From: Clostridia bacterium
GTDB lineage: Bacteria; Bacillota; Clostridia; Christensenellales; DTU072
Assembly (NCBI GenBank): GCA_017403145.1
Contig: JAFQOO010000002.1
Coordinates: 408-64,407, forward strand
Direction of reading: 5' to 3'
DNA length: 64,000 nucleotides
Position 1 is the first letter of the stretch, and each line of letters begins with the position of its first letter. Made by a program: the position numbers and the translations under genes. The notes under the pieces were generated by a model. The model saw nothing but the letters and a program-made list of their open reading frames with translations, made no database searches and was not told where the DNA came from. This document shows positions 1-15,103 of the stretch, in pieces.

Positions 1-27
1 ACCCAATCAAGAACTAATTCGAACCAA
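1..27. repeat. 27-nt direct repeat, copy 1 (acccaatcaagaactaAttcgaaccaa)
   Basis: Matches 6131..6157 at 26 of 27 positions. The window edge hides any upstream extension. Confidence 0.8.
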
Positions 28-155
28 AACTTCTTTATTTCACTATTGTAATAAATTCATGTATTATAGAACAAACAATTTCGTGATACAATAATTTTAT
101 GACTAACCTTTTGTTAAACTCATTATTATTATAAACAATTTATTGCGATATTTTT

Positions 156-206
156 GGTACATGGTAAGTGATATTATAAACTTATCAAGTCGTAAAGGAG
201 AAAAAC
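156..206 (+). promoter_or_regulatory. Conserved 51-nt leader/RBS region upstream of paralog A
   Basis: 43 of 51 nt identical to 1449..1499. Starts with GGTACAT and ends with the shared tatcaagtcgtaaaggagaaaaa RBS block. Confidence 0.6.
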
Positions 207-632
207 ATGGAAGATAATGAAAACAACAAACCAATTAGTGCTTTGGAGAGTTTAACGGATGAATGGTACGATTTAACTTTTTGGCCGGATGAAGATTTTG
301 ACTACGATAAATTCGTAAATATTTTTGATAAAACTTATCGCATATTCAAGTTTTTTTCCACAAAAAAATTTGTGGATAGGGCAATACTTGCTCTTTATGA
401 AAGTGTAATCACTTTTTTTAGATTTGGTAGAATGGGAAGTGTTGTTCAAAAGAACGCATGCAAAATCATCGCTAAATGCATGGCTAACGATACCGTTGTT
501 CCAATTGCGCCATGTGACATAGAACCGAAAGGTAGTTTTTGGAAATATGGAGGCAAAGAAATTTATCTTGACTACAATGACGTAAATGGTAGCGTGGCTA
601 GATACGTAGAGTTGATGGAGTCGTTCAAATAG
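207..632 (+). CDS. Hypothetical 141-aa protein, paralog A of a duplicated family
   Basis: Strong RBS (aaaggag), followed by a terminator. Roughly 40-50 percent identical by eye to the 1506..1931 product, with shared blocks DKTYxIFKFFST, FxDRA and YxDYND. No family recognised. Confidence 0.75.
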   Translation: MEDNENNKPISALESLTDEWYDLTFWPDEDFDYDKFVNIFDKTYRIFKFFSTKKFVDRAILALYESVITFFRFGRMGSVVQKNACKIIAKCMANDTVVPIAPCDIEPKGSFWKYGGKEIYLDYNDVNGSVARYVELMESFK

Positions 633-649
633 TAAAACTTAAACAAAAT

Positions 650-686
650 AGACCTGATTTAGGACAACTAAATCAGGTCTTTTTTA
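650..686 (+). terminator. Rho-independent terminator
   Basis: 12-bp stem agacctgattta/taaatcaggtct, 7-nt loop, then a T run. Confidence 0.85.
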
Positions 687-835
687 TTGCTTTTTTGTGG
701 CAAAATGACATATTGGGAAATTTACAATAAGAATTTGTGATGGAGATTATACTCGAGCACAGGTTTTTATTATGTACCAAATTTGACACACCGAAAATGT
801 TACACTACTCTTGAAAAAACAAAAAGGAGAAAAAT

Positions 836-1240
836 ATGGAAAATTTTGATTTGATTATTGGTTACGAAGATGTAAAGCTGGAGCTCAGAAGGGTACTTGA
901 TACGCTCAAAAATCCCGAAAAGTACAAGAATCTTGGAGTGAAACCCCCTAGGGGAATTTTGCTTCACGGCCATCCAGGTGTTGGTAAAACCGTATTGGCA
1001 AAGGCTTTTCTTGAGGCAAGTGGCAGAAAGTATTTCATTTGCAGAAAAGATAAGCCTAACGGAGAATTTGTAAATGAGATTACCGAAACCTTTGAAAAAG
1101 CCAAAGCAGGCGAACCTTGCATTATCCTTCTTGACGATATGGACAAATATGCCAACCAAGAGTTGGTTCGTGTTTTGATGGAAAAGAAAACGCTTACATC
1201 CAAGGATATTGCAAAAATCAAAAGCGTGGTAAACAACTAA
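836..1240 (+). CDS. Truncated/degenerate classical AAA+ ATPase (134 aa)
   Basis: Walker A is GHPGVGKT. The Walker B-like block is ILLDDMD (DD instead of DE). The ORF stops about 30 aa after Walker B, so sensor-1, Arg-finger and lid regions are missing. RBS aaaggag. Confidence 0.6.
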   Translation: MENFDLIIGYEDVKLELRRVLDTLKNPEKYKNLGVKPPRGILLHGHPGVGKTVLAKAFLEASGRKYFICRKDKPNGEFVNEITETFEKAKAGEPCIILLDDMDKYANQELVRVLMEKKTLTSKDIAKIKSVVNN

Positions 1241-1448
1241 TTTGAAAGTAGTATTCAATATTAGAAGTAAGTATTTCGAATCTTTGCAACTAAAATAGTG
1301 ACAAGAAAAACAGCTACAATTTTTGCATCAAATAAGTTAAAACGAAAAGAATCTCTTAGAATGTGATTGCAATATTAGAAAGTTAAACTTGGCACTCCAT
1401 TAGCATATAAACGTATAACTAATATAAATAATTCATTGAGACATTTCC

Positions 1449-1499
1449 GGTACATAACAAGTGATATCTTGAACGTATCAAGTCGTAAAGGAGAAAAAT
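1449..1499 (+). promoter_or_regulatory. Conserved 51-nt leader/RBS region upstream of paralog B
   Basis: Second copy of the 156..206 element (43 of 51 nt identical). Confidence 0.6.
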
Positions 1500-1505
1500 A
1501 GAAAT

Positions 1506-1931
1506 ATGGATAACAATAACAACGATAATCAGATTGTCACTCTTGAAAAAATAGCTTATGATTGGCAAAATTTGGCCATTAGACCAGATTATGAAGACTT
1601 TAATTACGATAAGTTCATATATCTTTTTAACAAAACTTATAATATATTCAAATTCTTTTCCACACGAAGTTTTATTGATAGAGCATTAGTTGGTCTTTAT
1701 GTTAGTGTACAAACTTTTTTTGGGGTAGATTGCAGTGGAACACTTTTGGAGTATGCTTGCAAGACCATTGCCATGACAATGGCACAAGAAACAATGCTTC
1801 CTTGTGAACCGTGTAGCGTTGCTCCGGAAGGCAATGTTATTAGACACCATGGTAAAGAGTTTTATGTTGATTACAACGACATTAAAGGTAGCATATCAAG
1901 ATATATGGAATTTGTTGAGAACCATGAATAA
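1506..1931 (+). CDS. Hypothetical 141-aa protein, paralog B
   Basis: Same length and conserved blocks as the 207..632 product. Its stop overlaps the next start (ATGAATAA). Confidence 0.75.
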   Translation: MDNNNNDNQIVTLEKIAYDWQNLAIRPDYEDFNYDKFIYLFNKTYNIFKFFSTRSFIDRALVGLYVSVQTFFGVDCSGTLLEYACKTIAMTMAQETMLPCEPCSVAPEGNVIRHHGKEFYVDYNDIKGSISRYMEFVENHE

Positions 1932-2406
1932 AGAAGAAATATTAAACGTTATATGTAAAATGATTGATTGTGGCAAAGTATCTACGGCGATGGCTCAAGC
2001 TGTATCTACGATAGGGTACGTTGATGCAAAAAGGGTACTAGAGATATGCAAAAACAACAATTTGGTTGTAGAAAGTGACGACAATGAACTAGTGCCTTGC
2101 GTTACCACTGACGAGTTATATGCTCTTATTGAAAACAATGCCATTGACTTGAGTTTGCCGGAGCAAGAGAGAATCCCCGAGTTTTGTGATATGGTAAAGC
2201 TTATTAGTGAATACGTTGACCTAGTGCAAATCGAAGGTAAGCCAAAATACTTTGCAAAATGCCCGTTTCACAAAGAGAAAATGCCGTCATTTTTAGTAAA
2301 TTCAGCTGAACAATATTTCTATTGCTTTGGTTGTGGACTTAGGGGAAACGCTAGTGATTTTATTGTCCTTGCCACCGAAAAAGGATTGAAGAAAAAGGGC
2401 GATTGA
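1924..2406 (+). CDS. Small DNA-binding protein: FtsK-gamma-like wHTH plus DnaG-type CHC2 zinc finger, no TOPRIM
   Basis: Internal ATG at 1924 overlaps the upstream stop. The N-terminus (VSTAMAQAVSTIGYVDAKRVLEICKNNNLV) resembles an FtsK gamma domain. The C-terminus (CPFHKEKMPSFLVNSAEQYFYCFGCGLRGNASDFI) matches the primase CHC2 zinc-finger motif. Confidence 0.6.
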   Translation: MNKEEILNVICKMIDCGKVSTAMAQAVSTIGYVDAKRVLEICKNNNLVVESDDNELVPCVTTDELYALIENNAIDLSLPEQERIPEFCDMVKLISEYVDLVQIEGKPKYFAKCPFHKEKMPSFLVNSAEQYFYCFGCGLRGNASDFIVLATEKGLKKKGD

Positions 2407-2417
2407 TTTCGCCCTTT
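2394..2417. terminator. Bidirectional hairpin between convergent genes
   Basis: Stem aaagggcga/tcgcccttt overlaps the TGA at 2404..2406, with A and T runs on either side. Confidence 0.6.
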
Positions 2418-2419
2418 AG

Positions 2420-3667
2420 TTAGATTTGGTTAATAAATTTTTCAATATATTGAGAGAATGTTTTATATAATTTATCCATTATATCATCCCGATTCGTTAG
2501 CTCTGAAAAATATTTTTTTTCTTTTTCATCCCATGCGTAAATTTCATCTTCATATGAATTGCTATAAACAAAGTGGAAACGACGTTCATTGATTTTAAAC
2601 CTGCAAATTAGTTCATTGTTTCCTTTTATGCTTATCATTAAATTATTATTTTTGGTTAGTTTTTTTGCACCATTGGAATTCAAAGTATAGTTTTCTTTTT
2701 TGGCACATTCTTGCAATTCTTTGGTCAAAATGGTCAAATCGGATTGGATATTAGACAAATCGATACTTCTTACCTTAAATGATGTATCATTTTTTAAAAA
2801 CTCATCTAACGCCGTATGACAATCAATTTTGTTCAAATGCAAAAGTTTATATACTTTTCCGAATATTACATATTTTCTATAGTCATTAGAAAGTCTGCTT
2901 GCAGGGTGTGGAAGCAAACATAGTTGGCACTCTATTTTTTTTAAATTAGGAATCAAATATTTTATCGCTAAATTATAAACTTGTTTGCTAAATGCAAATA
3001 TAATGAGCTTTTTGGAAGAATCGTTTCCGATAAGTATATTGACTTCTTTTGTTAAAATATTATTAACGCAAGTTTTGATGCAATCATTATGATAATAAGA
3101 AGTGCCTAAACTTTTTTTGCCATCTTCAGTATTCATACTGCATTTGATAACGTTAGTCATATATGCATTGCCAAGTTTAAAGGTTTTTATTAAGCTTGCT
3201 ATTAAACCACCATAGTTTAGTTGCTTATAACACTTAGGATATACGCAATCATCCTTGTTATAGCCATATTTATTTATCCAATACCATTGTAGAGCAGGAT
3301 ATTTTTTATTTTCGATTGGTTGCTTTTGGTATAACTCCGCATATTGGATACTTGGATTTTCAAACAAAAATAACACGGGAATATCGTTCCAGTCGTTTTC
3401 TGGCTTAATTCCCATGCTTGCACAAAAATCTAAAGAGTGTGCACCATGTGAAACGTAGCGAAGATTATACTTTTTATTATCTTTTTCAACAGATGATACG
3501 TTGTTTCCCATGTTCTCACACATAAAACAACAAGTTTCATTGGCGAGAGAAATGTCTTTTTCCCAGCCTTGTGGCACAGATTTTTTTACTATTACTTTGG
3601 TGAAACTAAATTCATTCAATTCGTCACGTATGCTTTGAACTTTTTTAATATCCATTTTCATATCCAT
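2420..3667 (-). CDS. Uracil-DNA glycosylase superfamily-like protein with an unknown ~130-aa C-terminal domain
   Basis: Three motifs appear in the order expected for family 4/5 UDGs. LFLFENPS corresponds to GEAPG/GMNPG motif A. AYMTNVIKC corresponds to the family-4 TN-V-KC block. LPHPASRL corresponds to HPS motif B. RBS aggag; start lies 8 nt after the WYL gene stop. Confidence 0.5.
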   Translation of the reverse strand: MDMKMDIKKVQSIRDELNEFSFTKVIVKKSVPQGWEKDISLANETCCFMCENMGNNVSSVEKDNKKYNLRYVSHGAHSLDFCASMGIKPENDWNDIPVLFLFENPSIQYAELYQKQPIENKKYPALQWYWINKYGYNKDDCVYPKCYKQLNYGGLIASLIKTFKLGNAYMTNVIKCSMNTEDGKKSLGTSYYHNDCIKTCVNNILTKEVNILIGNDSSKKLIIFAFSKQVYNLAIKYLIPNLKKIECQLCLLPHPASRLSNDYRKYVIFGKVYKLLHLNKIDCHTALDEFLKNDTSFKVRSIDLSNIQSDLTILTKELQECAKKENYTLNSNGAKKLTKNNNLMISIKGNNELICRFKINERRFHFVYSNSYEDEIYAWDEKEKKYFSELTNRDDIMDKLYKTFSQYIEKFINQI

Positions 3668-3675
3668 AAAAACTC

Positions 3676-4722
3676 CTAGTCATTATAGTTTTCTATCGCT
3701 TTTAGCAAGTCGGTCTTTATGTCTTCTACTAAACTTTGTGGGCTAATTACTTTTACGTGTGTTGCGTATTGCAACGCCCAAAACTTCATCGATTTTAGGT
3801 TTACGTTTGTTTCGCAAAGTACTTCGTCGTTTTCTTCTTTGATGAATCGAATATCATTGCCAAACCAATCCATCAAGTCGTTATATAAATAGGCTTTTGC
3901 TTTGAAAGTTACTTTGCTACTTTCGCCACTAAACATATAGATATGTTCTGCCATATGTTTTCCAAGCGTCAGTCCATATTTTGTTTCAGGAATTTCACTT
4001 TGGGCTTTGCGAATGCTACCATCTATTGGAGTAATATTTTTAAGTCTATCAATCCTAAAGTGAGCAATGTTATTATATTTATCAATGTTGCCTATTAGGT
4101 AGTATTTGCCGTTTGCAACTACCAATTGATAGGGGTTTACAACGTATTTCTTTAGTTCACCATTATCCCAGATTCTTTCGTGTAGTTTTTTGTCTTTTTG
4201 ATAGGAGCAAACGCTAAAAGAGACCTTTTGATTATGCTTTATGGCTTCTTCCAATATTTCAACGTTTAATAGTACGTCTTTGCTTTTGTGTGAATTATTA
4301 GGCAAGTAAATGACGTGTTTAACTTTTTCACGGAAATAAATATTAGATTGATTTTTAAGCTTATCAATAATGTCCTTAGTTAGTTCGCTTGAAAGTAAGT
4401 CGGAAAAGAGTAGACTATCGATAAGTAGCCTTAATTCACTATCATCAAACTCATGTTCAAGATACCAATCTGTTTGAATTATTTCTTCTTCACCGAATTT
4501 GCCGATACGTGTTTTTTCACTGTATTCTACGTTGTATCCCATCATTATTAGGTTATCAAGGTTTCTACGAATCGCCTTTCTATCAATGGTAACGTTATAG
4601 TTTTTTTCAAGCAATCCCTTGATTTCCATTACGGTTAAACGATGGTTTTCACTCGTATACTTTTTAAGAATTTCTAGAATTTGAAGAACTAACATGTTTT
4701 TTGGAATACTGCTTTCGTTCAT
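3676..4722 (-). CDS. WYL-domain transcriptional regulator (wHTH-WYL-WCX architecture, BrxR/CapW-like)
   Basis: N-terminal wHTH (LTVMEIKGLLEKNYNVTIDRKAIRRNLDNL). WYL core is NPYQLVVANGKYYLIGNIDKYNNIAHFRIDRL. RBS aaggaga. Confidence 0.8.
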   Translation of the reverse strand: MNESSIPKNMLVLQILEILKKYTSENHRLTVMEIKGLLEKNYNVTIDRKAIRRNLDNLIMMGYNVEYSEKTRIGKFGEEEIIQTDWYLEHEFDDSELRLLIDSLLFSDLLSSELTKDIIDKLKNQSNIYFREKVKHVIYLPNNSHKSKDVLLNVEILEEAIKHNQKVSFSVCSYQKDKKLHERIWDNGELKKYVVNPYQLVVANGKYYLIGNIDKYNNIAHFRIDRLKNITPIDGSIRKAQSEIPETKYGLTLGKHMAEHIYMFSGESSKVTFKAKAYLYNDLMDWFGNDIRFIKEENDEVLCETNVNLKSMKFWALQYATHVKVISPQSLVEDIKTDLLKAIENYND

Positions 4723-4841
4723 GGTCGTCTCCTTGTTTAACTATATATTATCATTTTCATAGTAATTTTACAATAGGGTATGGGATAAAAATGGTACATA
4801 TCTGCAAATATACTATATGTATCAAACATAAGGAGCGAGTA

Positions 4842-6092
4842 ATGAAAAGAGAGTTGATAGGTGACTTAAAGCGTTTTAAAGTAAATGGTAATAGCGTTGA
4901 AAAAAGGCAAATATACGGAGAAGTTTATATTCCAAGTGGTGTGAGAGAAATCAGCGATTACTGTTTTTATCGTGATGGAATGTGGCAAGCCATTTGTTTG
5001 CCCGATACTCTTGAGAAAATAGGAGAGTTAGCCTTTGCCGGGGGCTTTTATGGGGAAAGCATAAATTTACCTAAAACTTTAAAAGAAATAGGTCGTGGTG
5101 CATTTAATGAATGTCCTAATTTGAAATACATTGTAGTGCCTGGAAATCTCAAAAAGATAAGTCAAATGTGTTTTAATTTTTGTTATAATTTAGTTAACGT
5201 AACAATTGACGAAGGCGTGCAAGAAATAGGTGATTTTGCTTTTTCTTTTTGTAGAAAGTTATCGCATATTCAATTGCCATCCACTATTAAAAAAATTGGG
5301 AAAAATGCATTTTCCGGGATAAAAGTAGATTATCATATTTATTATGCCGGAACGAAAAAAGATTTTGAAAATATAGATTGGATAGAGCGAAATAAGTACG
5401 TTGATAAAGTAATTTTTGAAAAGAAAATGGATGAGAACGAGTTTGTAAAGACAGGCTTAGATTGTGTAGACTTCGGATACGACGAAATGGACGCTAAAGA
5501 AATGATTGCCGGTAGGAATATTATAAGCCGTCGCAATGGAGTAGTGATAGCTTACGGACGCGATGATTTAATTATAAAAGATGACGTAATTATGCGTCGT
5601 AATGAACCTAAACATATAATTATTACTAGAGATATAGTATCGATAGAAGATTTTTGTTTTGATAAGGAAAACTTAGTAGCAGTTGAATTGCCCGATACAT
5701 TAAAAGAAATAAAGTTTCATTCTTTTTCGGGCTTTGCCGGCGAAAGTATAACTTTACCAAAAGGATTAAAGAAGATAGGGCATTCTGCATTCATAAACAG
5801 TGCCATTAAAAAAATAGAAGTGCCCGGAAGTATTAAAGCGATAGAAGGTATGGCGTTTGGTGATTGTGTTGATTTAGAAGAAGTCATATTAAATGAAGGT
5901 ACCGAGAAGATTGAGTCTTTTGCTTTTTGCGGATGCAAAAAATTAAAATCTATTAGACTTCCTAAGAGCATTGTAGAAGTGCAGGCAGAAGCGTTTAGAA
6001 AATGTGGGCTAAAAGAAATCATAGTGGAAGATGATTCAAACGAATTCTTAAAAAATAAAATGAAAATGGTGTTAGAAAAATTAAAATTATGA
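4842..6092 (+). CDS. BspA-type leucine-rich repeat (LRR_5) protein, no signal peptide
   Basis: Two blocks of ~23-aa repeats (IPxxVxxIGxxAFxxCxxL) separated by a linker. The ATG at 4842 has RBS aaggag. The upstream ORF extension has no RBS and lies in the divergent promoter region. Confidence 0.8.
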   Translation: MKRELIGDLKRFKVNGNSVEKRQIYGEVYIPSGVREISDYCFYRDGMWQAICLPDTLEKIGELAFAGGFYGESINLPKTLKEIGRGAFNECPNLKYIVVPGNLKKISQMCFNFCYNLVNVTIDEGVQEIGDFAFSFCRKLSHIQLPSTIKKIGKNAFSGIKVDYHIYYAGTKKDFENIDWIERNKYVDKVIFEKKMDENEFVKTGLDCVDFGYDEMDAKEMIAGRNIISRRNGVVIAYGRDDLIIKDDVIMRRNEPKHIIITRDIVSIEDFCFDKENLVAVELPDTLKEIKFHSFSGFAGESITLPKGLKKIGHSAFINSAIKKIEVPGSIKAIEGMAFGDCVDLEEVILNEGTEKIESFAFCGCKKLKSIRLPKSIVEVQAEAFRKCGLKEIIVEDDSNEFLKNKMKMVLEKLKL

Positions 6093-6130
6093 TGTATGCA
6101 CTAACCTTTTGCATAATTGCCTTTTATCCC

Positions 6131-6157
6131 ACCCAATCAAGAACTATTTCGAACCAA
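6131..6157. repeat. 27-nt direct repeat, copy 2
   Basis: acccaatcaagaactaTttcgaaccaa. Also part of a 9-bp-stem hairpin, caagaacta-N15-tagttcttg (6138..6170). Confidence 0.8.
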
Positions 6158-6270
6158 GAATTAGTTCTTGAGTATGTTAAACTCGGAAGATTATGATTAC
6201 ACATAGATAAAAAGTATCGTATATAATAGGGGTATTGAAAAAATATAGATAATAGTTTATAATAGACTCG

Positions 6271-6465
6271 ATTAAGCAAAGATTGCGTGCAAAACTTGCT
6301 CAACATTCTTACGTCAAAAAGAAGCTGTTGGAAACAGCCGATTATCTTATTTGTGAAGATAGCCCTAAAGATAGTTTTTGGGGAATCGGAAAAGATAGAA
6401 AAGGACAAAATCACCTCGGTAAATTATGGATGAAATTGCGCAGTGAGATTAGAAACTATAAATAA
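6271..6465 (+). pseudogene. 5'-truncated NADAR (YbiA/DUF1768) family gene remnant
   Basis: The translation IKQRLRAKLAQH...EDSPKDSFWGIGKDRKGQNHLGKLWMKLR aligns with only the last ~60 aa of E. coli YbiA (ALRAKFEQH...DAYWGDGGHGKGKNRLGYLLMELR). An in-frame stop sits at 6253, with no ATG or RBS. Confidence 0.7.
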
Positions 6466-6479
6466 AAAAGGAGATAAAA

Positions 6480-6908
6480 ATGTTTTATTCACCATTGGTT
6501 AAAAAAGCGAGTCTAATTACATTTGACGCACATAAAGAAGATTGTGATAAAAATGGATATCCTTACGTTATGCATCCTTTCTACTTGGCATTTCAAATGG
6601 AAGATGAAAATTCCGTTTGTGTGGCACTATTACATGATGTGATTGAAGACCATGGAGACAAGTATTCTTTCGATTATTTGAGGCAACAAGGCTTTAATGA
6701 AGATATAATATCTACCTTGAAACTTTTAACGCACGATACATTGATTCCATATATGGATTATATAAAGAAAATCGGAGAAAACGAATTGGCAAAAAGAGTT
6801 AAAATTGCTGACCTAAAACATAATTTAGATTCCTCTCGATTGGATGGGAAAGAATTTAACAAAAGTGTTCAGTATAGACAAGCGTTATCTTATTTGACTA
6901 GTCTATAA
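6480..6908 (+). CDS. Stand-alone RelA/SpoT-type HD domain protein (small alarmone hydrolase-like)
   Basis: Contains HPF, LLHDVIEDH and the ADLKHNL motifs typical of (p)ppGpp hydrolase HD_4 domains. RBS aaaggag. Confidence 0.75.
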   Translation: MFYSPLVKKASLITFDAHKEDCDKNGYPYVMHPFYLAFQMEDENSVCVALLHDVIEDHGDKYSFDYLRQQGFNEDIISTLKLLTHDTLIPYMDYIKKIGENELAKRVKIADLKHNLDSSRLDGKEFNKSVQYRQALSYLTSL

Positions 6909-6998
6909 TGGGGTGTTGTATCGATTTTTCCCTGTTGCAAGTATCATTAAATTATAAAAGATAAAGAAATCAAGTTATTTGATTTAAGGAGAGAGGTT

Positions 6999-8309
6999 AT
7001 GAAAATTACCTTTATTGGTGCAGGTAGTACGGTGTTTTGTAAAAACGTGTTAGGTGATTGCTTACTTGCGGAGAATTTGCCTGAATTTGAAATTGCGCTT
7101 TTAGATATTGATAACGTTAGACTAGAGGAATCGTATGCTTTGATTTGTGCTCTTCGTGATAAATACAAGCCCGTAGTTAGGGTGAATAAATATCTTGCTA
7201 CCGATAGTGCACAAACGGAGGAAGCCTTTAGAAATGCTAATTACGTTATAAATGCTATCCAAGTAGGTGGATATAAGCCTTGCACGGTTACTGATTTTAA
7301 AATTCCTAAAAAATATGGTCTTCAACAAACAATTGGCGATACTATTGGAATAGGCGGTATATTCAGAGCGTTACGCACCATACCCGTAATGAAGGCTTAT
7401 GCCGACGTTATGGAAAGAGTTTGTCCCGATGCATTACTTCTTAATTACACTAATCCTATGAGTATATTATCGGGATATATGCAACGATATACCAAAGTTA
7501 AAACCGTTGGTTTATGCCACTCCTGTCAAGTAGTTGTTTCTTGGATAAATGGTAAACTTAAAGAGGAAAAACTTAACGATGCCGAGTATACTTTAGGCGG
7601 TATAAATCATATGTGTTGGTTGCTAACGTTGACCGATAAAGAGGGCAACGATTTATATCCATTATTTAAAAAGAAATTTAACGAGGTAAGACCATTTAAT
7701 GACCGCGTTAGATTGGAAATCATGAACCGTTTTGGATACTATAATACGGAGAGTAGCGAGCATACAGCGGAGTATCATCCTTACTTTATAAAATCAAAGT
7801 ATCCCCATCTAATTTTAAAATATTTAATCCCGATTGACGAGTATCCAAGACGTTGCAGACGTCAAATTAGACGTTGGAAAAAGCTTCGTAACGAGATTAT
7901 GGCGGATGGTAACGTTACTCACGAGCGTAGTAACGAGTATGGTTCGCGCATAATAGAAGCTTGCGAAACGGGGCAACCCTTCAAGATATATGGCAACGTG
8001 CAAAACGAGGGATGGATTACTAATCTGCCAAATACCGCTTGCGTTGAGGTGCCGATAATAGTTGATTCTAACGGACTAAATCCACAAGTGGTAGGCGAAC
8101 TTCCTCTGCAACTTGCAGCACTCAATATGACGCATATAGCGGTGCACGATATGGTACTAAAAGCTATAGAGACGGGCGAGAAGAAATATATTTATATGGC
8201 GGCATATCTTGACCCTCATACACGCGACCAACTCTCGCTTGATAAGATAAAATCGCTTTGCGACGACCTAATAAAAGCACACGGAGAATGGTTGCCAAAA
8301 TTTAAATAA
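6999..8309 (+). CDS. Glycoside hydrolase family 4 (alpha-galactosidase/alpha-glucosidase type)
   Basis: N-terminal NAD fold MKITFIGAGSTVF, the GLCHS block, and a length around 430 aa. Confidence 0.85.
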   Translation: MKITFIGAGSTVFCKNVLGDCLLAENLPEFEIALLDIDNVRLEESYALICALRDKYKPVVRVNKYLATDSAQTEEAFRNANYVINAIQVGGYKPCTVTDFKIPKKYGLQQTIGDTIGIGGIFRALRTIPVMKAYADVMERVCPDALLLNYTNPMSILSGYMQRYTKVKTVGLCHSCQVVVSWINGKLKEEKLNDAEYTLGGINHMCWLLTLTDKEGNDLYPLFKKKFNEVRPFNDRVRLEIMNRFGYYNTESSEHTAEYHPYFIKSKYPHLILKYLIPIDEYPRRCRRQIRRWKKLRNEIMADGNVTHERSNEYGSRIIEACETGQPFKIYGNVQNEGWITNLPNTACVEVPIIVDSNGLNPQVVGELPLQLAALNMTHIAVHDMVLKAIETGEKKYIYMAAYLDPHTRDQLSLDKIKSLCDDLIKAHGEWLPKFK

Positions 8310-8388
8310 AGGGAAAAGGGAATTATGAGAATAAATGCAAAGGAAATGACTTGCGCACGATGGACAACAACCCGATGAGGAATAGGAA

Positions 8389-9144
8389 ATGTTAGATATA
8401 ATAGAACAAAAGCTAAAAGAGATAGAAGAAACCGAAAATGTCAAAATACTCTATTGTGTGGAGTCCGGCAGCCGTGCTTGGGGCTTTGCATCGCACGATA
8501 GTGATTACGACGTAAGGTTTATTTACGTTAGAAGGGCAGAAGACTATCTAAGGCTAGACAAAAGAAGGGACGTTATAGAGTGGCAACTTGACGAAGTTTT
8601 GGATATCAATGGTTGGGACGTTAGTAAGGCTTTGCAACTACTTAACAAGTCCAATCCCACCTTGTTCGAGTGGAACTCTTCTCCCATAATTTATAAAAAA
8701 ACGGATGAGTGGGAGAAGGTATCACTTCTCATAAACGAGTATTTCGTGGCAAAAAACGGGCTATATCATTATCTAAATATGGCAAGAGGAAACTACCACG
8801 AATATTTGCAAGGTGAAAAGGTGCGCTTAAAGAAATACTTTTACGTGTTGCGACCATTGCTCGCTTGCGAGTGGATACTCAAAAAAGGTACCCCTCCGCC
8901 AATGTTATTTAGCGAGCTTGTTGATGAATGTTTGAGCGAAGAAATAAGGGGTGAGGTTGAAGCTCTTCTAAACAACAAAATGAATTCTCCAGAGCTTGGA
9001 GAGGGCGATAAAATAGTGGTATTAAACGAATATATCGTTAAAAAACTAGATAGTATAGCTGAAGAAATAGAAAAACTACCCACAGAACGTAGTAAGGGCT
9101 GGGATAAAATAAACGAAACATTTATTTCACTTATAAAGGAGTAA
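8389..9144 (+). CDS. YcgL-type Pol-beta superfamily nucleotidyltransferase (PF10127-like)
   Basis: ESGSRAWGFASHDSDYDVRFIY and DINGWDVSKALQLLNKSNPTLFEW closely match my recollection of the B. subtilis YcgL family. Confidence 0.8.
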   Translation: MLDIIEQKLKEIEETENVKILYCVESGSRAWGFASHDSDYDVRFIYVRRAEDYLRLDKRRDVIEWQLDEVLDINGWDVSKALQLLNKSNPTLFEWNSSPIIYKKTDEWEKVSLLINEYFVAKNGLYHYLNMARGNYHEYLQGEKVRLKKYFYVLRPLLACEWILKKGTPPPMLFSELVDECLSEEIRGEVEALLNNKMNSPELGEGDKIVVLNEYIVKKLDSIAEEIEKLPTERSKGWDKINETFISLIKE

Positions 9145-9149
9145 CAAAG

Positions 9150-9755
9150 ATGAAAAGAATAGTAAGATACGGGGTTTTTGAAACCAATAGTTCAAGTTCA
9201 CACTCTATTACCATTAAAAAGAAAGATGCCAATACCTCTTGGAGAAAGAAAGAGGATATTCCCGGCGATGAAAAGGAAATTCGCTCACCTGTAGAGAAGA
9301 TGTTTATGGTTTGGGGATTGGTTGTCGAAGAATTCTTTACCCTTTTAGTACGCGAAAAAAATGAAGCTATGGAAATAGAAGATGAAGAAGAAAGAAGTGG
9401 CATTCTTGAACAAATCGATAAAAGATACCAAAAGCTGGTAGCGGATAGAGAAGCCTTCATAAGCGAATGCAAAAAGGTGCAAGAAATCAAAGAGGATGCG
9501 GTTAGGGAATTTATGGAAAGAGCCGAAGAAGAGCCTTTCAATCACGATTTATGTTGTAGATTCTTCAACGAAGACTGCTTAGATGAGTGCACTTGTGGCT
9601 ACGACCTATATAGAGTATATAAAGAACTTGGTCTTGATTATTATAAAGACGATATAGCTACCCTTGCCAAAGCGTTATTTGACGAAAACGTATATTTTGT
9701 AACCTGCGAAGAATGGTTCGGTGGCTGTTGGGATATCGATAAATATATCTTCTAA
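9150..9755 (+). CDS. Hypothetical protein with FETNSSSSHS N-terminal motif and an acidic coiled middle
   Basis: Starts 6 nt after the upstream stop. Has a Cys cluster, CCRFFNEDCLDECTCG. No family name recalled. Confidence 0.65.
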   Translation: MKRIVRYGVFETNSSSSHSITIKKKDANTSWRKKEDIPGDEKEIRSPVEKMFMVWGLVVEEFFTLLVREKNEAMEIEDEEERSGILEQIDKRYQKLVADREAFISECKKVQEIKEDAVREFMERAEEEPFNHDLCCRFFNEDCLDECTCGYDLYRVYKELGLDYYKDDIATLAKALFDENVYFVTCEEWFGGCWDIDKYIF

Positions 9756-10627
9756 TGAATCTTTTAGCCGAGTATAAAAATGGGAATTACGTCGTTAGAT
9801 TATTTGACGACGGTACTAAAGAGCTTGTAACCGAGGACGATAAATTTATCGCCTGCTTTCCCGATAGCATTGATTTGAAGATAACCGATTATTGCGAGCT
9901 CAATTGTCCTATGTGCCACGAAAAGTCGTCGGTACTAGGTAAGCACGCCCAGTTGGATGCGGAATTTATAGACAAATTGCAGGCGGGAACTGAACTAGCA
10001 ATCGGCGGCGGAAATCCCTTTTCGCACCCCGAATTAGTTCCATTTTTAACTAAGTTAAAAGAAATAGGCGTCGTTCCCAATATAACTATAAACGAAAGGC
10101 ATTTGTCCCGTTATAAAGAGGTAATAGAGGAACTCATTGCCAAAAAGCTGATTTATGGACTAGGGATATCGCTTGCTAGCTATGAAGAAAGTACCTTTGA
10201 TTTTGCTAAGAGTTATCCACACGCGGTCCTACACGTTATTTGCGGTATTGTCGACGTCGATAAACTTATAGATATGGGTAGCGAGGAGCATAAGTTACTA
10301 ATATTAGGCTACAAAAAGAGGGGACGTGGAGAGAGTTTTTATTCAAACGAGGTTCGTGATAAAATAGAGGAGTGTTACAAAGCTCTCCCTAGAATATCTT
10401 CAAAATACGGGATAGTTAGTTTCGATAATCTTGCTCTAAAACAGCTTGACGTAAAAGAGCGTATCAAAGAAGACCTTTGGGAAGAGCGTTTTATGGGCGA
10501 TGATGGACAAAATACTATGTATATAGATTTAGTAAAGGGGGAATTTGCGGTAAGCTCTACCGCGGAAACAAGATATCCCATACTTGATAACGTGGAAGAT
10601 ATGTTCGAGGTAATCCGCATTAAATAA
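9755..10627 (+). CDS. Radical SAM protein (no SPASM/twitch extension evident)
   Basis: CX3CX2C motif DYCELNCPMCHE, and GGGNP (a GGE-like SAM motif). The start overlaps the upstream stop (TAATG). Confidence 0.85.
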   Translation: MNLLAEYKNGNYVVRLFDDGTKELVTEDDKFIACFPDSIDLKITDYCELNCPMCHEKSSVLGKHAQLDAEFIDKLQAGTELAIGGGNPFSHPELVPFLTKLKEIGVVPNITINERHLSRYKEVIEELIAKKLIYGLGISLASYEESTFDFAKSYPHAVLHVICGIVDVDKLIDMGSEEHKLLILGYKKRGRGESFYSNEVRDKIEECYKALPRISSKYGIVSFDNLALKQLDVKERIKEDLWEERFMGDDGQNTMYIDLVKGEFAVSSTAETRYPILDNVEDMFEVIRIK

Positions 10628-10667
10628 TTTCCTAAAAAGGGAGCATACTACTCTTAAAGGAGAGAGT

Positions 10668-10766
10668 ATGAAAAAGAATAAAGGCAGTAAAAGCGATACG
10701 CTTGGCTCATATACGGGAGTACCTACCGATGGCGGTAAACCAACCCAAGATGCCGATGACCTATGA
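10668..10766 (+). CDS. Unannotated 32-aa ORF MKKNKGSKSDTLGSYTGVPTDGGKPTQDADDL
   Basis: Strong RBS aaaggagagagt 5 nt upstream of the ATG. A terminator follows immediately. Too short to appear in the ORF track. Confidence 0.5.
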   Translation: MKKNKGSKSDTLGSYTGVPTDGGKPTQDADDL

Positions 10767-10771
10767 AGAAA

Positions 10772-10795
10772 ATCCGAGTTAATCTCGGATTTTTT
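10772..10795 (+). terminator. Rho-independent terminator
   Basis: Stem atccgag/ctcggat, loop ttaat, then TTTTT. Confidence 0.8.
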
Positions 10796-10886
10796 AATAT
10801 ACACAATAATAACACAATTTACTCATTATACTATCATTGATTATATGTGCTTTTGGTGTTACAATAAAGAAAAAGGTGGTAATAAT

Positions 10887-12395
10887 ATGAAAAAAAGTTT
10901 TATTATTGTACCGATTATTTTAATTAGTATTTGTTTGATTTTTTCTTTAACAGCCTGTTCGGTAAAAGACGATTCGAACTTCCTTTATGATAATTACGGT
11001 GTCAAGTATGCTGGCGTTTACGGTGATTACGAAAGTAGTGAGAACTATACGGAAATAATAGAGAACGATTTTATATCTACCGAGACGAATAACGTGAGTT
11101 ATTTTTCTATTGATGCAAACACCGCCTCTTATCCTAATTTACGCAAACGCATAATGGAGAACTATAACATACCTAAAGATGCTGTTAGAGTAGAGGAAAT
11201 GTTAAATTATTTTAGTTATGATTACGTTAAACCCACCGATGGCTCTATAATGTCGCTTACGTCTTCGGTTTTTGACAATCCTTATAATCCCCAAACAAAG
11301 CTTATGACCATAGGTCTTGCTTCTAAAGAGGTAGCATTTAGCAACGTTAAGAATAATTTGGTATTCCTAATAGACGTTAGTGGTTCTATGTATAGCGCCG
11401 ACAAACTTCCCTTGGTGCAAGAATCTTTCAAATTGCTGGTAGAAAATCTCAATGCGGAAGATAGAATATCTATAGTAACCTATGCAGGAAACGATAACGT
11501 TGCGTTAAAAGGGGCTTATGGTAACGAAAAACAAAAGATAATGGCGGTTATAGAAGATTTGGTAGCCGGCGGTTCTACTGCAGGTAGCGAGGGTATAAAG
11601 ACTGCATATAACATTGCAAGGGAGTGCTTTATAGAGGGCGGTAACAACCGAGTAATTCTTGCAACCGATGGCGATTTTAACGTAGGAATATCTAACACCA
11701 CAGCGCTTGGTAGATTTATTGGAGAAAAACGAGAGAGTGGAATATATTTTTCCGTTTATGGTTTTGGAACAGGCAACATCCAATCTGACCTAATGGAAAC
11801 GTTGGCTCTTGAAGGTAATGGAGTATATAGTTATATAGATTCCATTATGGAAGCAAGGCGCGCACTCGTAACAGATATAGGCGGTTCGCTTGTAACCGTT
11901 GCAAAAGACGTTAAAGCGGGAGTAACCTTCAATAAAGATTACGTTGATAGCTATCGCTTGATAGGATACGAAAATAAACTACTTACCGAAGATGAATTTA
12001 ATGATGATAAAACCGATGCGGGTGAGCTCGGAAGCGGACATACGGTAACTATCGTATACGAAATAAAGCTAAAAGAAAGGGAACTTGTTGAAAACGAAAA
12101 GTTTGCTGAAGTTATATTGAAATATAAACCGACGGAAAATTCCGGCGACGATACTTTAGAGCAAAGCATTACTCTAGGTATATCAACGAATGATTATCGC
12201 ACTATGAACGCCCAAGACGCATTTATCTCGTCGGTAATAGAGTTTGCTTTGATATTGCGCGAGTCTAATTATAAAGCCAATGCCGACCTTAACGCACTTA
12301 TTACTCGTCTTGATAATTTGGATTTATCTAGCGACCAATTCAAAGCGGAATTCCGCGACGTAGTAAAAAAGTATCGTGAAAATATAAATGGTTAA
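10887..12395 (+). CDS. von Willebrand factor type A domain lipoprotein (YfbK-like)
   Basis: Lipobox LTAC. N-terminal block is VRVEEMLNYFSYDY. The MIDAS-type motif is DVSGSM. The internal ATG at 10887 has RBS aaaggtgg. Confidence 0.8.
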   Translation: MKKSFIIVPIILISICLIFSLTACSVKDDSNFLYDNYGVKYAGVYGDYESSENYTEIIENDFISTETNNVSYFSIDANTASYPNLRKRIMENYNIPKDAVRVEEMLNYFSYDYVKPTDGSIMSLTSSVFDNPYNPQTKLMTIGLASKEVAFSNVKNNLVFLIDVSGSMYSADKLPLVQESFKLLVENLNAEDRISIVTYAGNDNVALKGAYGNEKQKIMAVIEDLVAGGSTAGSEGIKTAYNIARECFIEGGNNRVILATDGDFNVGISNTTALGRFIGEKRESGIYFSVYGFGTGNIQSDLMETLALEGNGVYSYIDSIMEARRALVTDIGGSLVTVAKDVKAGVTFNKDYVDSYRLIGYENKLLTEDEFNDDKTDAGELGSGHTVTIVYEIKLKERELVENEKFAEVILKYKPTENSGDDTLEQSITLGISTNDYRTMNAQDAFISSVIEFALILRESNYKANADLNALITRLDNLDLSSDQFKAEFRDVVKKYRENING

Positions 12396-12397
12396 AT

Positions 12398-12427
12398 AAA
12401 GAGCCGATTAAGTCGGCTCTTTATTTT
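12398..12427. terminator. Bidirectional terminator
   Basis: Stem aaagagccga/tcggctcttt flanked by A and T runs, between convergent genes. Confidence 0.85.
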
Positions 12428-12432
12428 GTAGG

Positions 12433-13296
12433 TTACTCGATAATTCTTTTTGCGGTTATAAAGTAGTCCCAGCGCGTTTGAGAAATGGGTTCTATTACCG
12501 CGTAATCACTAGCGGTATGTAGTATATAGTTGTCGCCAAGATACATTCCCACGTGCCTAACGCGATTTATGCCGGTTGAATTATATCCGTTTGCATTGGT
12601 AAAGAACATCAAATCACCTCGCCTTAACTCGTCAACCTTGTTGCCTTGATAATACTGTTTTTTGCTGGTTACTTCAAGTAAATCTCCGTTACCAAAGTAA
12701 AACATATATTGCATTAGCGCCGAGCAATCGTATTTACCGGGTACAAAGTTATAGTTCAACTTTCCGTTTCCCCAATGATATCGTTCCGAACCATATACGT
12801 AAGGATGCCCAAGTAACTTTAAACCTATGGCTATAACTTTTTCTATTCTATCGTCGCCTTTTGCTATTTTTACAAGTGTAACGTAGTCTTTATGTACGTA
12901 GGCTGTTTTTTCCTTATAAACGGTACGATACCAATTACCGCTTTCGCCTTCAAGAGAGAGCATATCCCCCTTATTTATACTACCGAGTTTACTAGAAGCG
13001 GTACTTGTCCCACTCCGTACGCTCAAAGAGTTTACATTTGAGGATAAGTAGTATGCGTAACTAATAGTAGGGGTAGGTGGAGTTTCTTCTTCGCTAGGTT
13101 TTTCGGGTTCACTTGGAGGCGTAGGCTCGTTTGGAGTATCGGGCTCTGTGGGTAAGCTTTCATCACTACCTTCCGTGTCTGGCAACGCACCTTCAATAGA
13201 GGGTGTATAATCTTCACTTTCTTTGCAAGCGGATAGGGTGAAAAGCATACTAAAGGTTACTAAAAGTATAAAAGTATTGAGTAAATATTTTTTCAT
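12433..13296 (-). CDS. NlpC/P60 cell-wall hydrolase lipoprotein with SH3 domain
   Basis: Lipobox LSAC and a Pro/Glu/Thr-rich linker. The SH3-like segment is followed by catalytic YDCSALMQYMF and HVGMYLG. Confidence 0.85.
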   Translation of the reverse strand: MKKYLLNTFILLVTFSMLFTLSACKESEDYTPSIEGALPDTEGSDESLPTEPDTPNEPTPPSEPEKPSEEETPPTPTISYAYYLSSNVNSLSVRSGTSTASSKLGSINKGDMLSLEGESGNWYRTVYKEKTAYVHKDYVTLVKIAKGDDRIEKVIAIGLKLLGHPYVYGSERYHWGNGKLNYNFVPGKYDCSALMQYMFYFGNGDLLEVTSKKQYYQGNKVDELRRGDLMFFTNANGYNSTGINRVRHVGMYLGDNYILHTASDYAVIEPISQTRWDYFITAKRIIE

Positions 13297-13421
13297 AGCA
13301 TCATTTTAAAAGTAAATAAACTATAAGTCAACGCACAAATTATGGTAAATTGGGTGTTATACCTATTGAATGAGGTGGTAAATTGTGGTAAAATCAAAAT
13401 ATCAACTTTGGAGAAAGGAAT

Positions 13422-14162
13422 ATGAAAAAGTTAAAAAGGAAAATTATAGGCTTTTTAGTAGTGATAGCTCTTTTAGCCGGCATTATTTTTGGTGCCGCTA
13501 TGTTTGTTGGTTGCACCGACGTTCAACTACATACGAAAGCAAAAGATGGACAAATCAAAGTAGCTTGCGTAGGCGATAGCATAACTTATGGAATGAGTGT
13601 TATAAATTGGTTTAAAAACACCTATCCCGCACAACTAGGCGATATGTTGGGCGACGATTATCACGTATTAAACTTTGGATTTAGTGCAAAAACCGCCCAA
13701 GAAAATAACGTAGAATCATATCGTGCAACCAAACTATACGAAAAGAGCAAGAAATATCAACCTGACATTGTTATACTTATGCTTGGCTCTAACGATAGTA
13801 AGCCCTATAACTTTACCGATGGTAAAGCGGACTTTAAGCAAGCGATGAAGGAACTTATAGAGATATATCAAGGACTTGAAAGTTCACCTGAAATTATACT
13901 TGCTACCGTCAACTCCGGTTTTTACGTTCACGGAGCAAAGGAAGGCGACTATATGTACGATATCAATGGTGAGAATATAAATATAATTAACGAAGCAATC
14001 AAAGAACTTGCCGATGAATATAATCTCACGTTAGTCGATACCTATGCGATTACCAAAGACCACCCCGAATGGTACAAACTTGATGGTATCCACCCCGATA
14101 AAAACGGACAAACCGCTATGGCAGAAGCATTCTATGAAGCAGTTAAGAGCTTGGCAAAATAG
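13422..14162 (+). CDS. SGNH/GDSL hydrolase
   Basis: Block I is CVGDSITYG, block V is DGIHPD, and there is an N-terminal signal/anchor. Confidence 0.85.
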   Translation: MKKLKRKIIGFLVVIALLAGIIFGAAMFVGCTDVQLHTKAKDGQIKVACVGDSITYGMSVINWFKNTYPAQLGDMLGDDYHVLNFGFSAKTAQENNVESYRATKLYEKSKKYQPDIVILMLGSNDSKPYNFTDGKADFKQAMKELIEIYQGLESSPEIILATVNSGFYVHGAKEGDYMYDINGENINIINEAIKELADEYNLTLVDTYAITKDHPEWYKLDGIHPDKNGQTAMAEAFYEAVKSLAK

Positions 14163-14180
14163 TGATTAAAAGGGAATGGT

Positions 14181-14978: not shown

Positions 14979-14991
14979 GGCAAAGTTAATC

Positions 14992-15021
14992 AAAAAAACC
15001 AAGCAATTGCTTGGTTTTTTC
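14992..15021 (+). terminator. Rho-independent terminator
   Basis: Perfect palindrome ccaagcaattgcttgg followed by a T run. Confidence 0.85.
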
Positions 15022-15044
15022 TTTTATTTTATAGTTTTTTGTTG

Positions 15045-15073
15045 TTGACTTTCACGCTTTAGTGTGCTAAACT
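15045..15073 (+). promoter_or_regulatory. Sigma-A type promoter of the yerC-his operon, with an embedded inverted repeat
   Basis: TTGACT-N17-TAAACT. The inverted repeat TTTAGtgtgCTAAA (15058..15071) overlaps the -10, and ACTAGT follows just downstream. Confidence 0.55.
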
Positions 15074-15103
15074 AGTAAAGTATTTTATTAGGAGTAGTGT
15101 ACT

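Follow-up and report, generated by a model that had tools for sequence, protein, structure and literature searches.

The locus examined here raises the question of whether a two-gene operon on the minus strand of a Clostridia bacterium contig encodes an undescribed DNA glycosylase under WYL-domain control and, if so, whether the pair serves to defend its host against phages. The operon lies in a 64,000-nucleotide (nt) stretch of GenBank contig JAFQOO010000002.1 (hereafter the window), and a first-pass annotation made from the sequence alone had described it as a WYL-domain regulator followed, after an 8-nt gap, by a protein resembling the uracil-DNA glycosylase (UDG) superfamily, with the stop codon of the regulator lying inside the ribosome-binding site (RBS) of the second gene. 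Coordinates and junction, read from the sequence, bear out this layout. Comparison with relatives showed that the second gene belongs to a new UDG clade, predicted to be of iron-sulfur (Fe-S) type and with intact catalytic motifs, which forms an operon with the WYL regulator and resides on small, variable, low-GC accessory islands. The features of the operon, in window coordinates and with protein lengths in amino acids (aa), are as follows:

2420-3667, minus strand: UDG-like gene, 415 aa (open reading frame (ORF), stop codon included)
2423-2812, minus strand: C-terminal domain of the UDG-like protein, aa 286-415 (helix, four- to five-stranded antiparallel sheet, helix)
2819-3550, minus strand: conserved catalytic core, aa ~40-283 (from conservation in 144 members)
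3668-3678, minus strand: operon junction (WYL TAG stop 3676-3678 overlaps AGGAG RBS 3673-3677)
3676-4722, minus strand: winged helix-turn-helix (wHTH)-WYL-WCX regulator gene, 348 aa, first gene of the operon (ORF)
4745-4773, minus strand: candidate sigma-70-type promoter of the operon (TTGTAA 4768-4773, 17 nt, TAATAT 4745-4750)

The junction between the two genes reads gacTAGGAGtttttATG, and 5 nt separate the RBS from the ATG of the UDG-like gene (3665-3667), the database version of which is a 411-aa protein starting from the third ATG. The automatic promoter scan did not list the TTGTAA-17 nt-TAATAT pair, which was put forward on reading the sequence; both hexamer regions are kept in the upstream region of L004, a locus syntenic with the window.

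Taken alone, the 415-aa protein yields a sub-threshold match to the Pfam UDG model (17.1 bits against a cut-off of 24.3, E 0.0058), and 26 of 32 homologues match the same model at E <= 0.01, with a best value of 3.9e-8. Searches of PDB sequences, run both with the single sequence and with a profile, returned nothing even at E 10, and a fold search was therefore needed. The AlphaFold2 (AF2) model, built on the family alignment, was obtained with a predicted local distance difference test (pLDDT) score of 90.2 and a predicted template-modelling (pTM) score of 0.76. When this model was compared with the PDB using Foldseek, the top eight matches were all SMUG1 or SMUG2 (E 3.6e-5 to 4.8e-3, probability 0.99-1.00), with a target-normalised TM score of about 0.47, an identity of 10-13% and a root-mean-square deviation of 6.7-10.9 Å (best about 7 Å). 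At the level of the predicted model, the protein thus has the UDG-superfamily fold that had been suspected from its motifs. The BFVD viral structure library gave no significant match for the model. The proposal that the family is undescribed also held: neither NCBIfam nor PADLOC returned a relevant match for the protein, as was the case for PDB sequences, and no description of the family, of its pairing with WYL regulators or of the palindromic box presented below was found in the literature, PADLOC or NCBIfam.

The three motifs that had been recognized in UDG order (LFLFENPS, aa 99-106; AYMTNVIKC, aa 168-176; LPHPASRL, aa 252-259) are all present and conserved across the family. Residue conservation was computed over an alignment of 144 family members, and the core motifs follow one another in the order C47-x2-C50, S-H74-G-x-H77-x-x-D80, F-E103-N104-P105-S (motif A), N167-x-Y-x-T171-N172-x-x-K175-C176, C200 and P-H254-P-A (motif B). 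Motif A retains E103 in 93%, N104 in 79% and P105 in 98% of members; the central block retains T171 in 99%, N172 in 84% (Asp in 14%) and K175-C176 in 97-98%; and motif B retains H254 in 94% and P255 in 99%. Since E103, P105, T171, K175, C176, H254 and P255 are each kept in 93-99% of members, the motif matches are not due to chance. Motif A, F-E-N-P-S, is a hybrid of the Glu of family 4 and the Asn of families 2 and 3, and the S-H74-G-x-H-x-x-D80 motif is specific to this family and conserved at 96-99% (H74 96%, D80 97%). Exactly four cysteines are kept at 96-98% (C47 and C50, 96%; C176 and C200, 98%), against only 58% for C196. An hhalign comparison with the Thermus thermophilus family 4 UDG (1UI0; E 4.9e-4, at a modest probability of 32%, over the C-terminal half only) aligns C176 and C200 with the Fe-S ligands C84 and C100, and H254 with the catalytic H155; the four cysteines are the predicted ligands of a [4Fe-4S] cluster of the family 4/5 type. 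Glycosylase activity is likewise predicted for the protein, in which E-N-P would activate water, T-N would read the Watson-Crick face of a uracil-type base and H-P-A would stabilise the leaving group.

Two features point to variation in what is recognized. N172 corresponds to the uracil-recognising N80 of family 4, and in 20 of the 144 members the base-recognition position carries Asp in place of Asn (T-D versus T-N) with the other motifs intact (e.g. P0024 and P0033-P0037). The corresponding type of change in human UNG, N204D, reportedly turns a family 1 UDG into a cytosine glycosylase, and the TN/TD variation may be a natural specificity switch. The second feature is the C-terminal domain of about 130 aa, which was described from the outset as unassignable and remains so: modelled separately with AF2 it reaches a pLDDT of 85.4, with no match in Pfam and none in the PDB fold search (best E 0.21). 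It is present in about half of the family, with 68 of the 144 members measuring at least 380 aa and another 68 at most 330 aa. The Asn-to-Asp variation and the variable C-terminal domain together suggest diversifying specificity.

The relationship of the protein to characterised glycosylases was assessed family by family. Family 4 UDGa enzymes (1UI0; Sulfolobus tokodaii 4ZBY) show a collinear series of CxxC, V-x-G-x-G-like strand, motif A, T-N-x-V-K-C, fourth Cys and H-P-A, and the four conserved cysteines of the UDG-like protein fall at their Fe-S ligand positions. The UDG-like family departs from them, however, in motif A (F/M-E-N-P-S/G versus G-E-(A/G)-P-G), in the distance from CxxC to motif A (about 50 residues versus about 25), in being twice as long, with the extra C-terminal domain and the S-H-G-x-H-x-x-D motif, and in lacking any match at the level of hidden Markov models to family 4 structures or NCBIfam, with Foldseek ranking SMUG first. 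SMUG1 and SMUG2 (family 3), the best structural matches, share the Asn at the catalytic motif A position (x-N-P, as in GMNPG) and an HPS/HPA motif B, but have GMNPGP and HPSPRN motifs and no metal cluster, where the UDG-like protein has FENPS, HPASRL and four Fe-S-type cysteines; SMUG1 is moreover a stand-alone repair enzyme with no WYL link. The protein is a new clade of the UDG superfamily, in neither family 3 nor family 4. Brig1, an anti-phage glycosylase acting on alpha-glucosyl-hydroxymethylcytosine (PMC11078745), had been named in the first-pass annotation as a precedent, and no relationship to it is detectable: the family profile aligns with Brig1 at an hhalign probability of 0.26% (E 0.24) over 21 columns of motif A only, and Brig1 has a GLNPG motif without the Fe-S cysteine pattern. 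The comparison covered Brig1 alone among the Brig proteins, with its sequence taken by optical character recognition from the supplement of PMC11078745, and the PDB set used for the fold search contained no Brig1 structure and so could not return it. If the defence reading is true, the likeness to Brig1, Brig2 and Brig3 would lie in a UDG-fold enzyme, often in AT-rich accessory regions, that removes a base specific to the phage and so creates abasic sites (PMC11078745; bioRxiv 10.1101/2025.10.29.685425); their publications mention no WYL regulator.

The family is rare. A word-indexed search retrieved 32 homologues, all metagenomic, and an exhaustive HMMER scan found 191 clusters in 1.84 billion representatives, distributed patchily across unrelated phyla. 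Carrier genomes are mostly Clostridia metagenome-assembled genomes (MAGs), together with Bacillus, Aneurinibacillus, Bacteroidota and Ignavibacteriota. No relatives were found in 50,697 GenBank phage records, 72,556 PLSDB plasmids or IMG/VR viral contigs, and the idea of a phage- or plasmid-borne gene was dropped on this count. In one Clostridium sp. MAG (L029:10160-10873), the UDG-like gene is broken into two ORFs (83 and 121 aa) and appears to be a pseudogene, which fits accessory-gene turnover.

The regulator matches Pfam WYL at 2.3e-11 and WCX at 5.5e-4, the latter weakly and below the Pfam cut-off; its N-terminus gives a weak winged-helix match to FokI_D3 (aa 18-69), and PADLOC WYL models match at 1.3e-23, with PDLC01457 spanning aa 14-331. 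Its original assignment to the BrxR/CapW type stands as regards the wHTH-WYL-WCX architecture and is doubtful as regards the sequence. A profile of 14 UDG-linked WYL orthologues searched against the PDB matched DriD best, at about 2e-9 (8TP8, 7U02), then PafC/PafBC (6.6e-7 to 4.8e-5), with BrxR (7QFZ) reaching only a marginal E of 1.4. The regulator also resembles BrxR and CapW in heading or adjoining accessory cargo that varies and in having a palindrome upstream of its own operon, whereas the box sequence is specific to this WYL subfamily and the cargo consists of a glycosylase and DNA-processing enzymes, not of BREX or CBASS. For BrxR-type regulators, it has been described that one family heads many accessory cargoes (PMC9122601). 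DriD (Caulobacter) and PafBC (mycobacteria), the closest solved WYL-WCX relatives, similarly act on several promoters through a shared box and on DNA-processing genes; their regulons are core and chromosomal, whereas here the boxes cluster in small variable accessory islands with cargo that differs by locus. Sensing of single-stranded DNA (ssDNA) is predicted for the WYL domain. The WYL subfamily comprises 4,181 proteins at E <= 1e-20, hundreds of them at about 50% identity, and three homologues in long contigs with no UDG-like neighbour carry different cargo: unknown genes beside MNT-HEPN and a UvrD/SLFN-type helicase in one, an AAA-M41 protein in another, and an operon of AAA, HD and PD-(D/E)XK/REase-ARP genes in the third. 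The regulator is not specific to the glycosylase.

Pairing of the two genes was analyzed in 31 distinct loci, some taken from metagenome contigs and others from GTDB genomes. In 18 of them, a same-subfamily WYL gene is found no more than 8 kb from the UDG-like gene; the two are adjacent or overlapping in eight loci (gaps of -7 to +18 nt), with one or two intervening genes elsewhere, and the divergences of the WYL and UDG-like proteins are correlated pairwise (Spearman 0.46). The surrounding genes recur in part. A DUF2779/Cas4-like nuclease is found in nine loci, a DEDDh (RNase_T) exonuclease in about eight, a soluble AAA + Peptidase_M41 protein in at least five and an SNF2-type helicase of 1,000-1,200 aa with P4_cII or DUF8437 domains in four to five, and rarer partners include a 450-530-aa protein resembling the DNA polymerase III alpha subunit (Pol III alpha-like), a metallophosphatase whose gene is translationally coupled to that of the glycosylase, a DnaB_C/AAA_25 ATPase and primase pieces. 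The claim of a conserved WYL-UDG pair is hence sustained, with the amendment that the pair is not a two-gene module; it forms the core of a multi-operon set in which DNA-processing genes nearby have the same upstream box. In L038 (9001-11144) the next gene after the UDG-like one, overlapping it by 4 nt, encodes a Metallophos phosphoesterase; in L040 (8787-10465) a gap of 27 nt separates the two, and in L007 and L036 the Pol III alpha-like protein adjoins the UDG-like gene instead; these neighbours could be partners that process apurinic/apyrimidinic (AP) sites or DNA ends.

The shared box was found by comparing the upstream regions of WYL genes, and is a 20-bp palindrome of the form ATGTACC-N6(A/T-rich)-GGTACAT. 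A scan of the 516,549 nt of the 31 loci with a symmetrised position weight matrix (PWM), at a threshold of 13 bits or more, returned 27 sites, against 3.1 +/- 1.4 in 30 shuffles that keep mononucleotide composition only, and the majority of these sites lie 30-130 nt upstream of start codons. An earlier operator guess, TGATAC-N20-GTACCA, drawn from the window and L004 alone, was superseded by this box once more loci were compared. Three sites occur in the 64-kb window, all of them inside the low-GC island:

4780-4799, minus strand: WYL box 1, ATGTACCATTTTTATCCCAT (PWM 19.5-26.9 bits; conserved with L004)
143-162, no strand assigned: WYL box 2, TTGCGATATTTTTGGTACAT (PWM 13.5-14.9 bits; 45 nt upstream of the first 141-aa gene)
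772-791, no strand assigned: WYL box 3, ATGTACCAAATTTGACACAC (PWM 17.7 bits; 45 nt upstream of an AAA remnant)

The first box lies 58 nt upstream of the WYL start, 6 nt before the -35-like TTGTAA and 43 nt from the start of the divergent LRR_5 gene. The second lies inside a 91-nt repeat that precedes both 141-aa paralogues, and the box in the other copy is degenerate and below threshold; the equivalent box of L004 is found 51 nt upstream of its 141-aa gene. Counterparts of the third are found in L001, 43 nt upstream of a unit comprising a 279-aa gene and AAA-M41, and in L021, where about 840 nt with small ORFs separate the box from the downstream AAA-M41 gene. The box of the first 141-aa gene coincides in part with the expected -35 position and that of the WYL gene precedes the -35-like hexamer, so that activation and repression are both possible.

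Across loci, boxes precede the WYL(-UDG) operons of the window, L004, L012, L019, L021, L034, L036 and L038; in at least eight UDG-linked loci their distance upstream of the WYL start is 36-83 nt. They are also found upstream of the Pol III alpha-like gene and of a 300-aa unknown gene (L007, L036), of the SNF2 helicase (L036, L040) and of the DnaB_C operon (L040), and in L013 and L026, with no WYL gene nearby, they precede operons containing the UDG-like gene. Five WYL loci on which the matrix had not been trained (L046-L050; non-UDG, WYL of about 50% identity) have exactly one box each, placed 41-55 nt ahead of the gene that opens the operon with WYL, and only in L049 is this leading gene WYL itself. 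One well-placed box per untrained locus provides independent validation, and the box is the predicted operator of the WYL regulator. A perfect variant palindrome, TTGTCCCG-TTTT-CGGGACAA, was seen inside over-long WYL ORF calls of high-GC Clostridia MAGs (L016:1447-1468 and L020:8046-8067); it probably lies upstream of the true WYL starts, which would suggest that box and regulator co-vary.

Defence genes are found beside several of these loci. In L034 (4599-10209), a 999-aa Cas13d (PADLOC E 1.8e-165) lies directly upstream of the WYL-UDG pair; the 390-nt spacer contains WYL boxes, and a search of 19 kb found no CRISPR array. HTH-WYL proteins near Cas13d have been reported as putative accessories (WYL-b1-5; PMC5935466). 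The L034 WYL belongs to the box-linked regulator subfamily and heads its own operon, and some of the Cas13d accessories may therefore be neighbouring regulators. In L004, an operon of SLFN-g3 helicase, Piwi (prokaryotic Argonaute, pAgo) and DpnII-MboI genes (10579-15988) lies 1.6 kb from the module, and a variant palindrome, GTGTAACAAAATCGTTACAC, scores 15.8 bits 89 nt upstream of it, raising the possibility that this pAgo system is under the same WYL control. A retron-type reverse transcriptase (RT) in L040, PDC-S26 in L036 and EcoRII in L027 are further defence neighbours, and named genomes occasionally carry type II restriction-modification genes (methyltransferase and restriction endonuclease) and LmuB and IetA-like matches. 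These neighbours are suggestive of a defence-island setting, and many of the genes that accompany the WYL regulators are uncharacterised. Transposases and one integrase are also found among the neighbours; L040 has a tyrosine integrase at its end and L041 an rve transposase at its start.

The surroundings of the operon in the window had been described as AT-rich, with gene remnants and repeats, and this description is accurate: GC content is 31-34% at positions 1-7000, where most of the rest of the window has about 36-43%, AAA and NADAR fragments are present, and repeats are found at several positions. The remaining features of this island are as follows:

1-27, plus strand: direct repeat, left copy, at the window edge (ACCCAATCAAGAACTA[A/T]TTCGAACCAA)
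207-632, plus strand: 141-aa protein, paralogue 1 (ORF)
836-1240, plus strand: truncated AAA ATPase ORF, 134 aa (Pfam AAA 1.3e-13)
1506-1931, plus strand: 141-aa protein, paralogue 2, followed by the zinc-ribbon gene (ORF)
1960-2406, plus strand: 148-aa protein with a DnaG-type CHC2 zinc ribbon only and no Toprim domain (Pfam Zn_ribbon_DnaG 1.1e-19)
2394-2417, no strand assigned: GC-rich hairpin between convergent genes, candidate bidirectional terminator (terminator-like scan: 9-pair stem, 5 GC pairs)
4842-6092, plus strand: BspA-type leucine-rich-repeat protein, 416 aa from the ATG at 4842 (Pfam LRR_5 7.1e-75)
6131-6157, plus strand: direct repeat, right copy, just past the LRR_5 stop (can form a 14-bp hairpin)
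6283-6465: NADAR remnant at the island's right border, 60-aa ORF (C-terminal third of the domain: profile positions 98-163 of 163, Pfam E 1e-15)

The 141-aa paralogues are homologous to each other and to the 141-aa gene of L004 (E 1e-43 to 1e-87), and the Pfam search with the first of them (207-632) gave no significant match. L004 has the same order of 141-aa gene and zinc-ribbon gene, convergent to the UDG-like gene; the zinc-ribbon protein also measures 148 aa in public contigs. The LRR_5 gene is divergent from WYL, the two sharing the intergenic region that contains the box, and this arrangement recurs in L004. The 134-aa AAA ORF is a remnant of the AAA + Peptidase_M41 protein of about 420-440 aa that recurs beside the module elsewhere (phmmer matches to 420-440-aa proteins in L021, L013, L001 and L034, E 2e-45 to 1e-15). 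The 27-nt direct repeat has exactly two copies in the 64 kb, with none expected, extends to 39 nt at 85% identity, brackets the whole low-GC block and is found only in contigs of the same genome; it may mark the island ends or be a terminator-type repeat. The 91-nt repeat (80% identity) is located at 115-205 and 1408-1498, upstream of both 141-aa paralogues.

What the operon is for can be addressed from these data by weighing four readings, which overlap. We favour an inducible anti-invader (anti-phage) base-excision role and give it a probability of roughly 45%, because the family is rare and patchy, lies on islands and has defence neighbours, because its regulator behaves like BrxR, and because Brig1 and Brig2, UDG-fold enzymes that defend against modified-base phages (PMC11078745; bioRxiv 10.1101/2025.10.29.685425), provide a precedent. 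Judged from gene context, a defence function is plausible. According to this proposal, ssDNA arising from phage replication or DNA damage would bind the WYL domain, as in DriD and PafBC, and the regulator would then switch box-controlled promoters, the targets of which would be the 141-aa/zinc-ribbon genes and the decayed AAA-M41 protease gene in the window, and the DEDDh exonuclease, Cas4-like DUF2779 nuclease, SNF2-type helicase, Pol III alpha-like protein and DnaB_C-type ATPase in other genomes. The glycosylase would flip out and excise a non-canonical pyrimidine missing from host DNA, predicted to be uracil or a 5-substituted uracil for the TN majority and possibly a cytosine derivative for the TD variants, leaving abasic sites that would block invader replication and offer entry points for host AP endonucleases or co-regulated nucleases. 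A more elaborate version, which appears quite unlikely in the form stated here, is an inducible multi-enzyme base-excision restriction system in which the Fe-S UDG marks the non-canonical pyrimidine, DEDDh, DUF2779 and PHP/metallophosphatase enzymes and the SNF2 helicase destroy the DNA, WYL acts as an ssDNA-sensing switch, and Asn/Asp exchange retargets the enzyme between uracil- and cytosine-type bases.

Several observations weigh against the anti-invader role. Of the 31 loci, 13 have no WYL gene in the fetched sequence, including very short contigs and the most distant, shortest members; the latter, in Bacillus, Aneurinibacillus and Bacteroidota, lie mostly amid housekeeping genes, aspartate kinase, ASD and SecA being examples, and in one case a locus without WYL adjoins EcoRII. 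Enzymes of replication or repair type, and not typical abortive-infection effectors, make up the box-linked partners, the WYL-WCX region is nearer to the damage-response activators DriD and PafBC than to BrxR, and PADLOC holds no model for the 415-aa protein. Defence matches, taken as a plain count, are only occasional among 118 neighbours in named genomes, and the box enrichment was measured against shuffles of mononucleotide composition. On the biochemical side, the hhalign probability of 32% to 1UI0 is modest, and the [4Fe-4S] assignment draws on cysteine conservation and alignment.

Some of these same observations would be expected if the operon were part of damage-inducible repair, with WYL as master of a LexA-independent regulon, as PafBC is in Actinobacteria and DriD in Caulobacter, and the UDG-like protein as a specialised enzyme of base-excision repair that, with a spectrum like that of SMUG, would remove oxidised or deaminated pyrimidines. 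Among solved structures, DriD and PafBC indeed come closest to the WYL-WCX region, the nearest folds are the repair enzymes SMUG1 and SMUG2, UvrD is found nearby in L001, and the WYL subfamily is very large, as for a lineage-wide regulator; the DNA-processing genes of the box set (DEDDh exonuclease, DUF2779/Cas4-like nuclease, SNF2 helicase, Pol III alpha-like protein, DnaB_C ATPase and primase zinc ribbon) agree with repair, or with a mobile element, nearly as well as with defence. We regard repair as a serious rival, though a less probable one than the anti-invader role, since a family of this rarity, scattered over unrelated phyla, is too rare and patchy for core repair, the genes sit in low-GC blocks with remnants, transposases or integrases at chromosomal positions that differ between related genomes, and the cargo of close WYL homologues varies and includes restriction-like and toxin-antitoxin genes, which would be unexpected for a conserved regulon.

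The same blocks can be taken as a decayed integrative element or phage satellite, with WYL as its repressor or inducer, the box genes serving replication and maintenance, and the UDG-like protein sanitising uracil during replication of the element, as family 4 UDGs do in the replication modules of phages and plasmids. The 27-nt direct repeat that brackets the island with remnants inside, the integrase and transposase at the borders of L040 and L041, the DnaD_N/HTH_36, DnaB_C and RT genes of L040, the Phage_P4_cII domain of the helicases, the Toprim/DnaG_N primase, DnaB_C ATPase and two DEDD exonucleases around the pair in L001, and family 4 UDG domains fused to or named after phage DNA polymerases (PDB titles of 9QHS and 6AIL) all speak for such an origin. 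Against it stand the empty searches of phage records, plasmids and IMG/VR, the absence of an integrase, tRNA or structural gene from the window island, gene content and order that vary strongly by locus with no complete replicon, and distant members that are single genes among housekeeping genes, so that a mobile-element module is improbable. Far less probable still is a non-catalytic role, in which the UDG-like protein would bind or crosslink a base or lesion as a sensor or roadblock and not turn it over: UdgX provides a precedent of a family 4-like fold that evolved covalent DNA binding (PMC4787834), and characterised UDGs contain nothing that corresponds to the S-H-G-x-H-x-x-D motif or the C-terminal domain, but the residues for water activation and leaving-group stabilisation are kept as in active enzymes and no UdgX-type KRRIH loop was seen in the alignment.

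Defence glycosylases and WYL-gated islands are already known, and this family, its WYL pairing and its box appear to be new. Base-excision defence (Brig1-3, Dag) and WYL-gated defence (BrxR, CapW) are both recent themes with few examples; if the defence reading is true, a new Fe-S UDG family would join the former, and the 20-bp operator would link the two. Were the multi-enzyme version to hold, this would be the first Fe-S glycosylase in immunity, as far as sequence comparisons show. If repair were instead the correct explanation, the system would represent a PafBC/DriD-like LexA-independent response in Clostridia, carried on mobile islands. Whether the answer is defence, damage response or both, the box opens a way to both the regulon and the signal of a WYL subfamily with over 4,000 members, whose target genes could be mapped with it. 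The locus comes from gut/rumen-type Bacillota, in which phages with U-, 5-hydroxymethyluracil- or hypermodified-T DNA are known, and the enzyme may recognize a base outside the range of existing glycosylases, which would give it potential as a tool.

Nothing was detected when the whole window was scanned for tRNAs and positions 1-9000 for Rfam families. Just outside the island, no link to the WYL-UDG finding was seen for the genes at 8389-10627, the annotation of which was taken from the identical public contig L042. These genes encode, in tandem, an RlaP-type nucleotidyltransferase (251 aa), a 201-aa protein without a family match and a weakly matching radical-SAM protein (290 aa).

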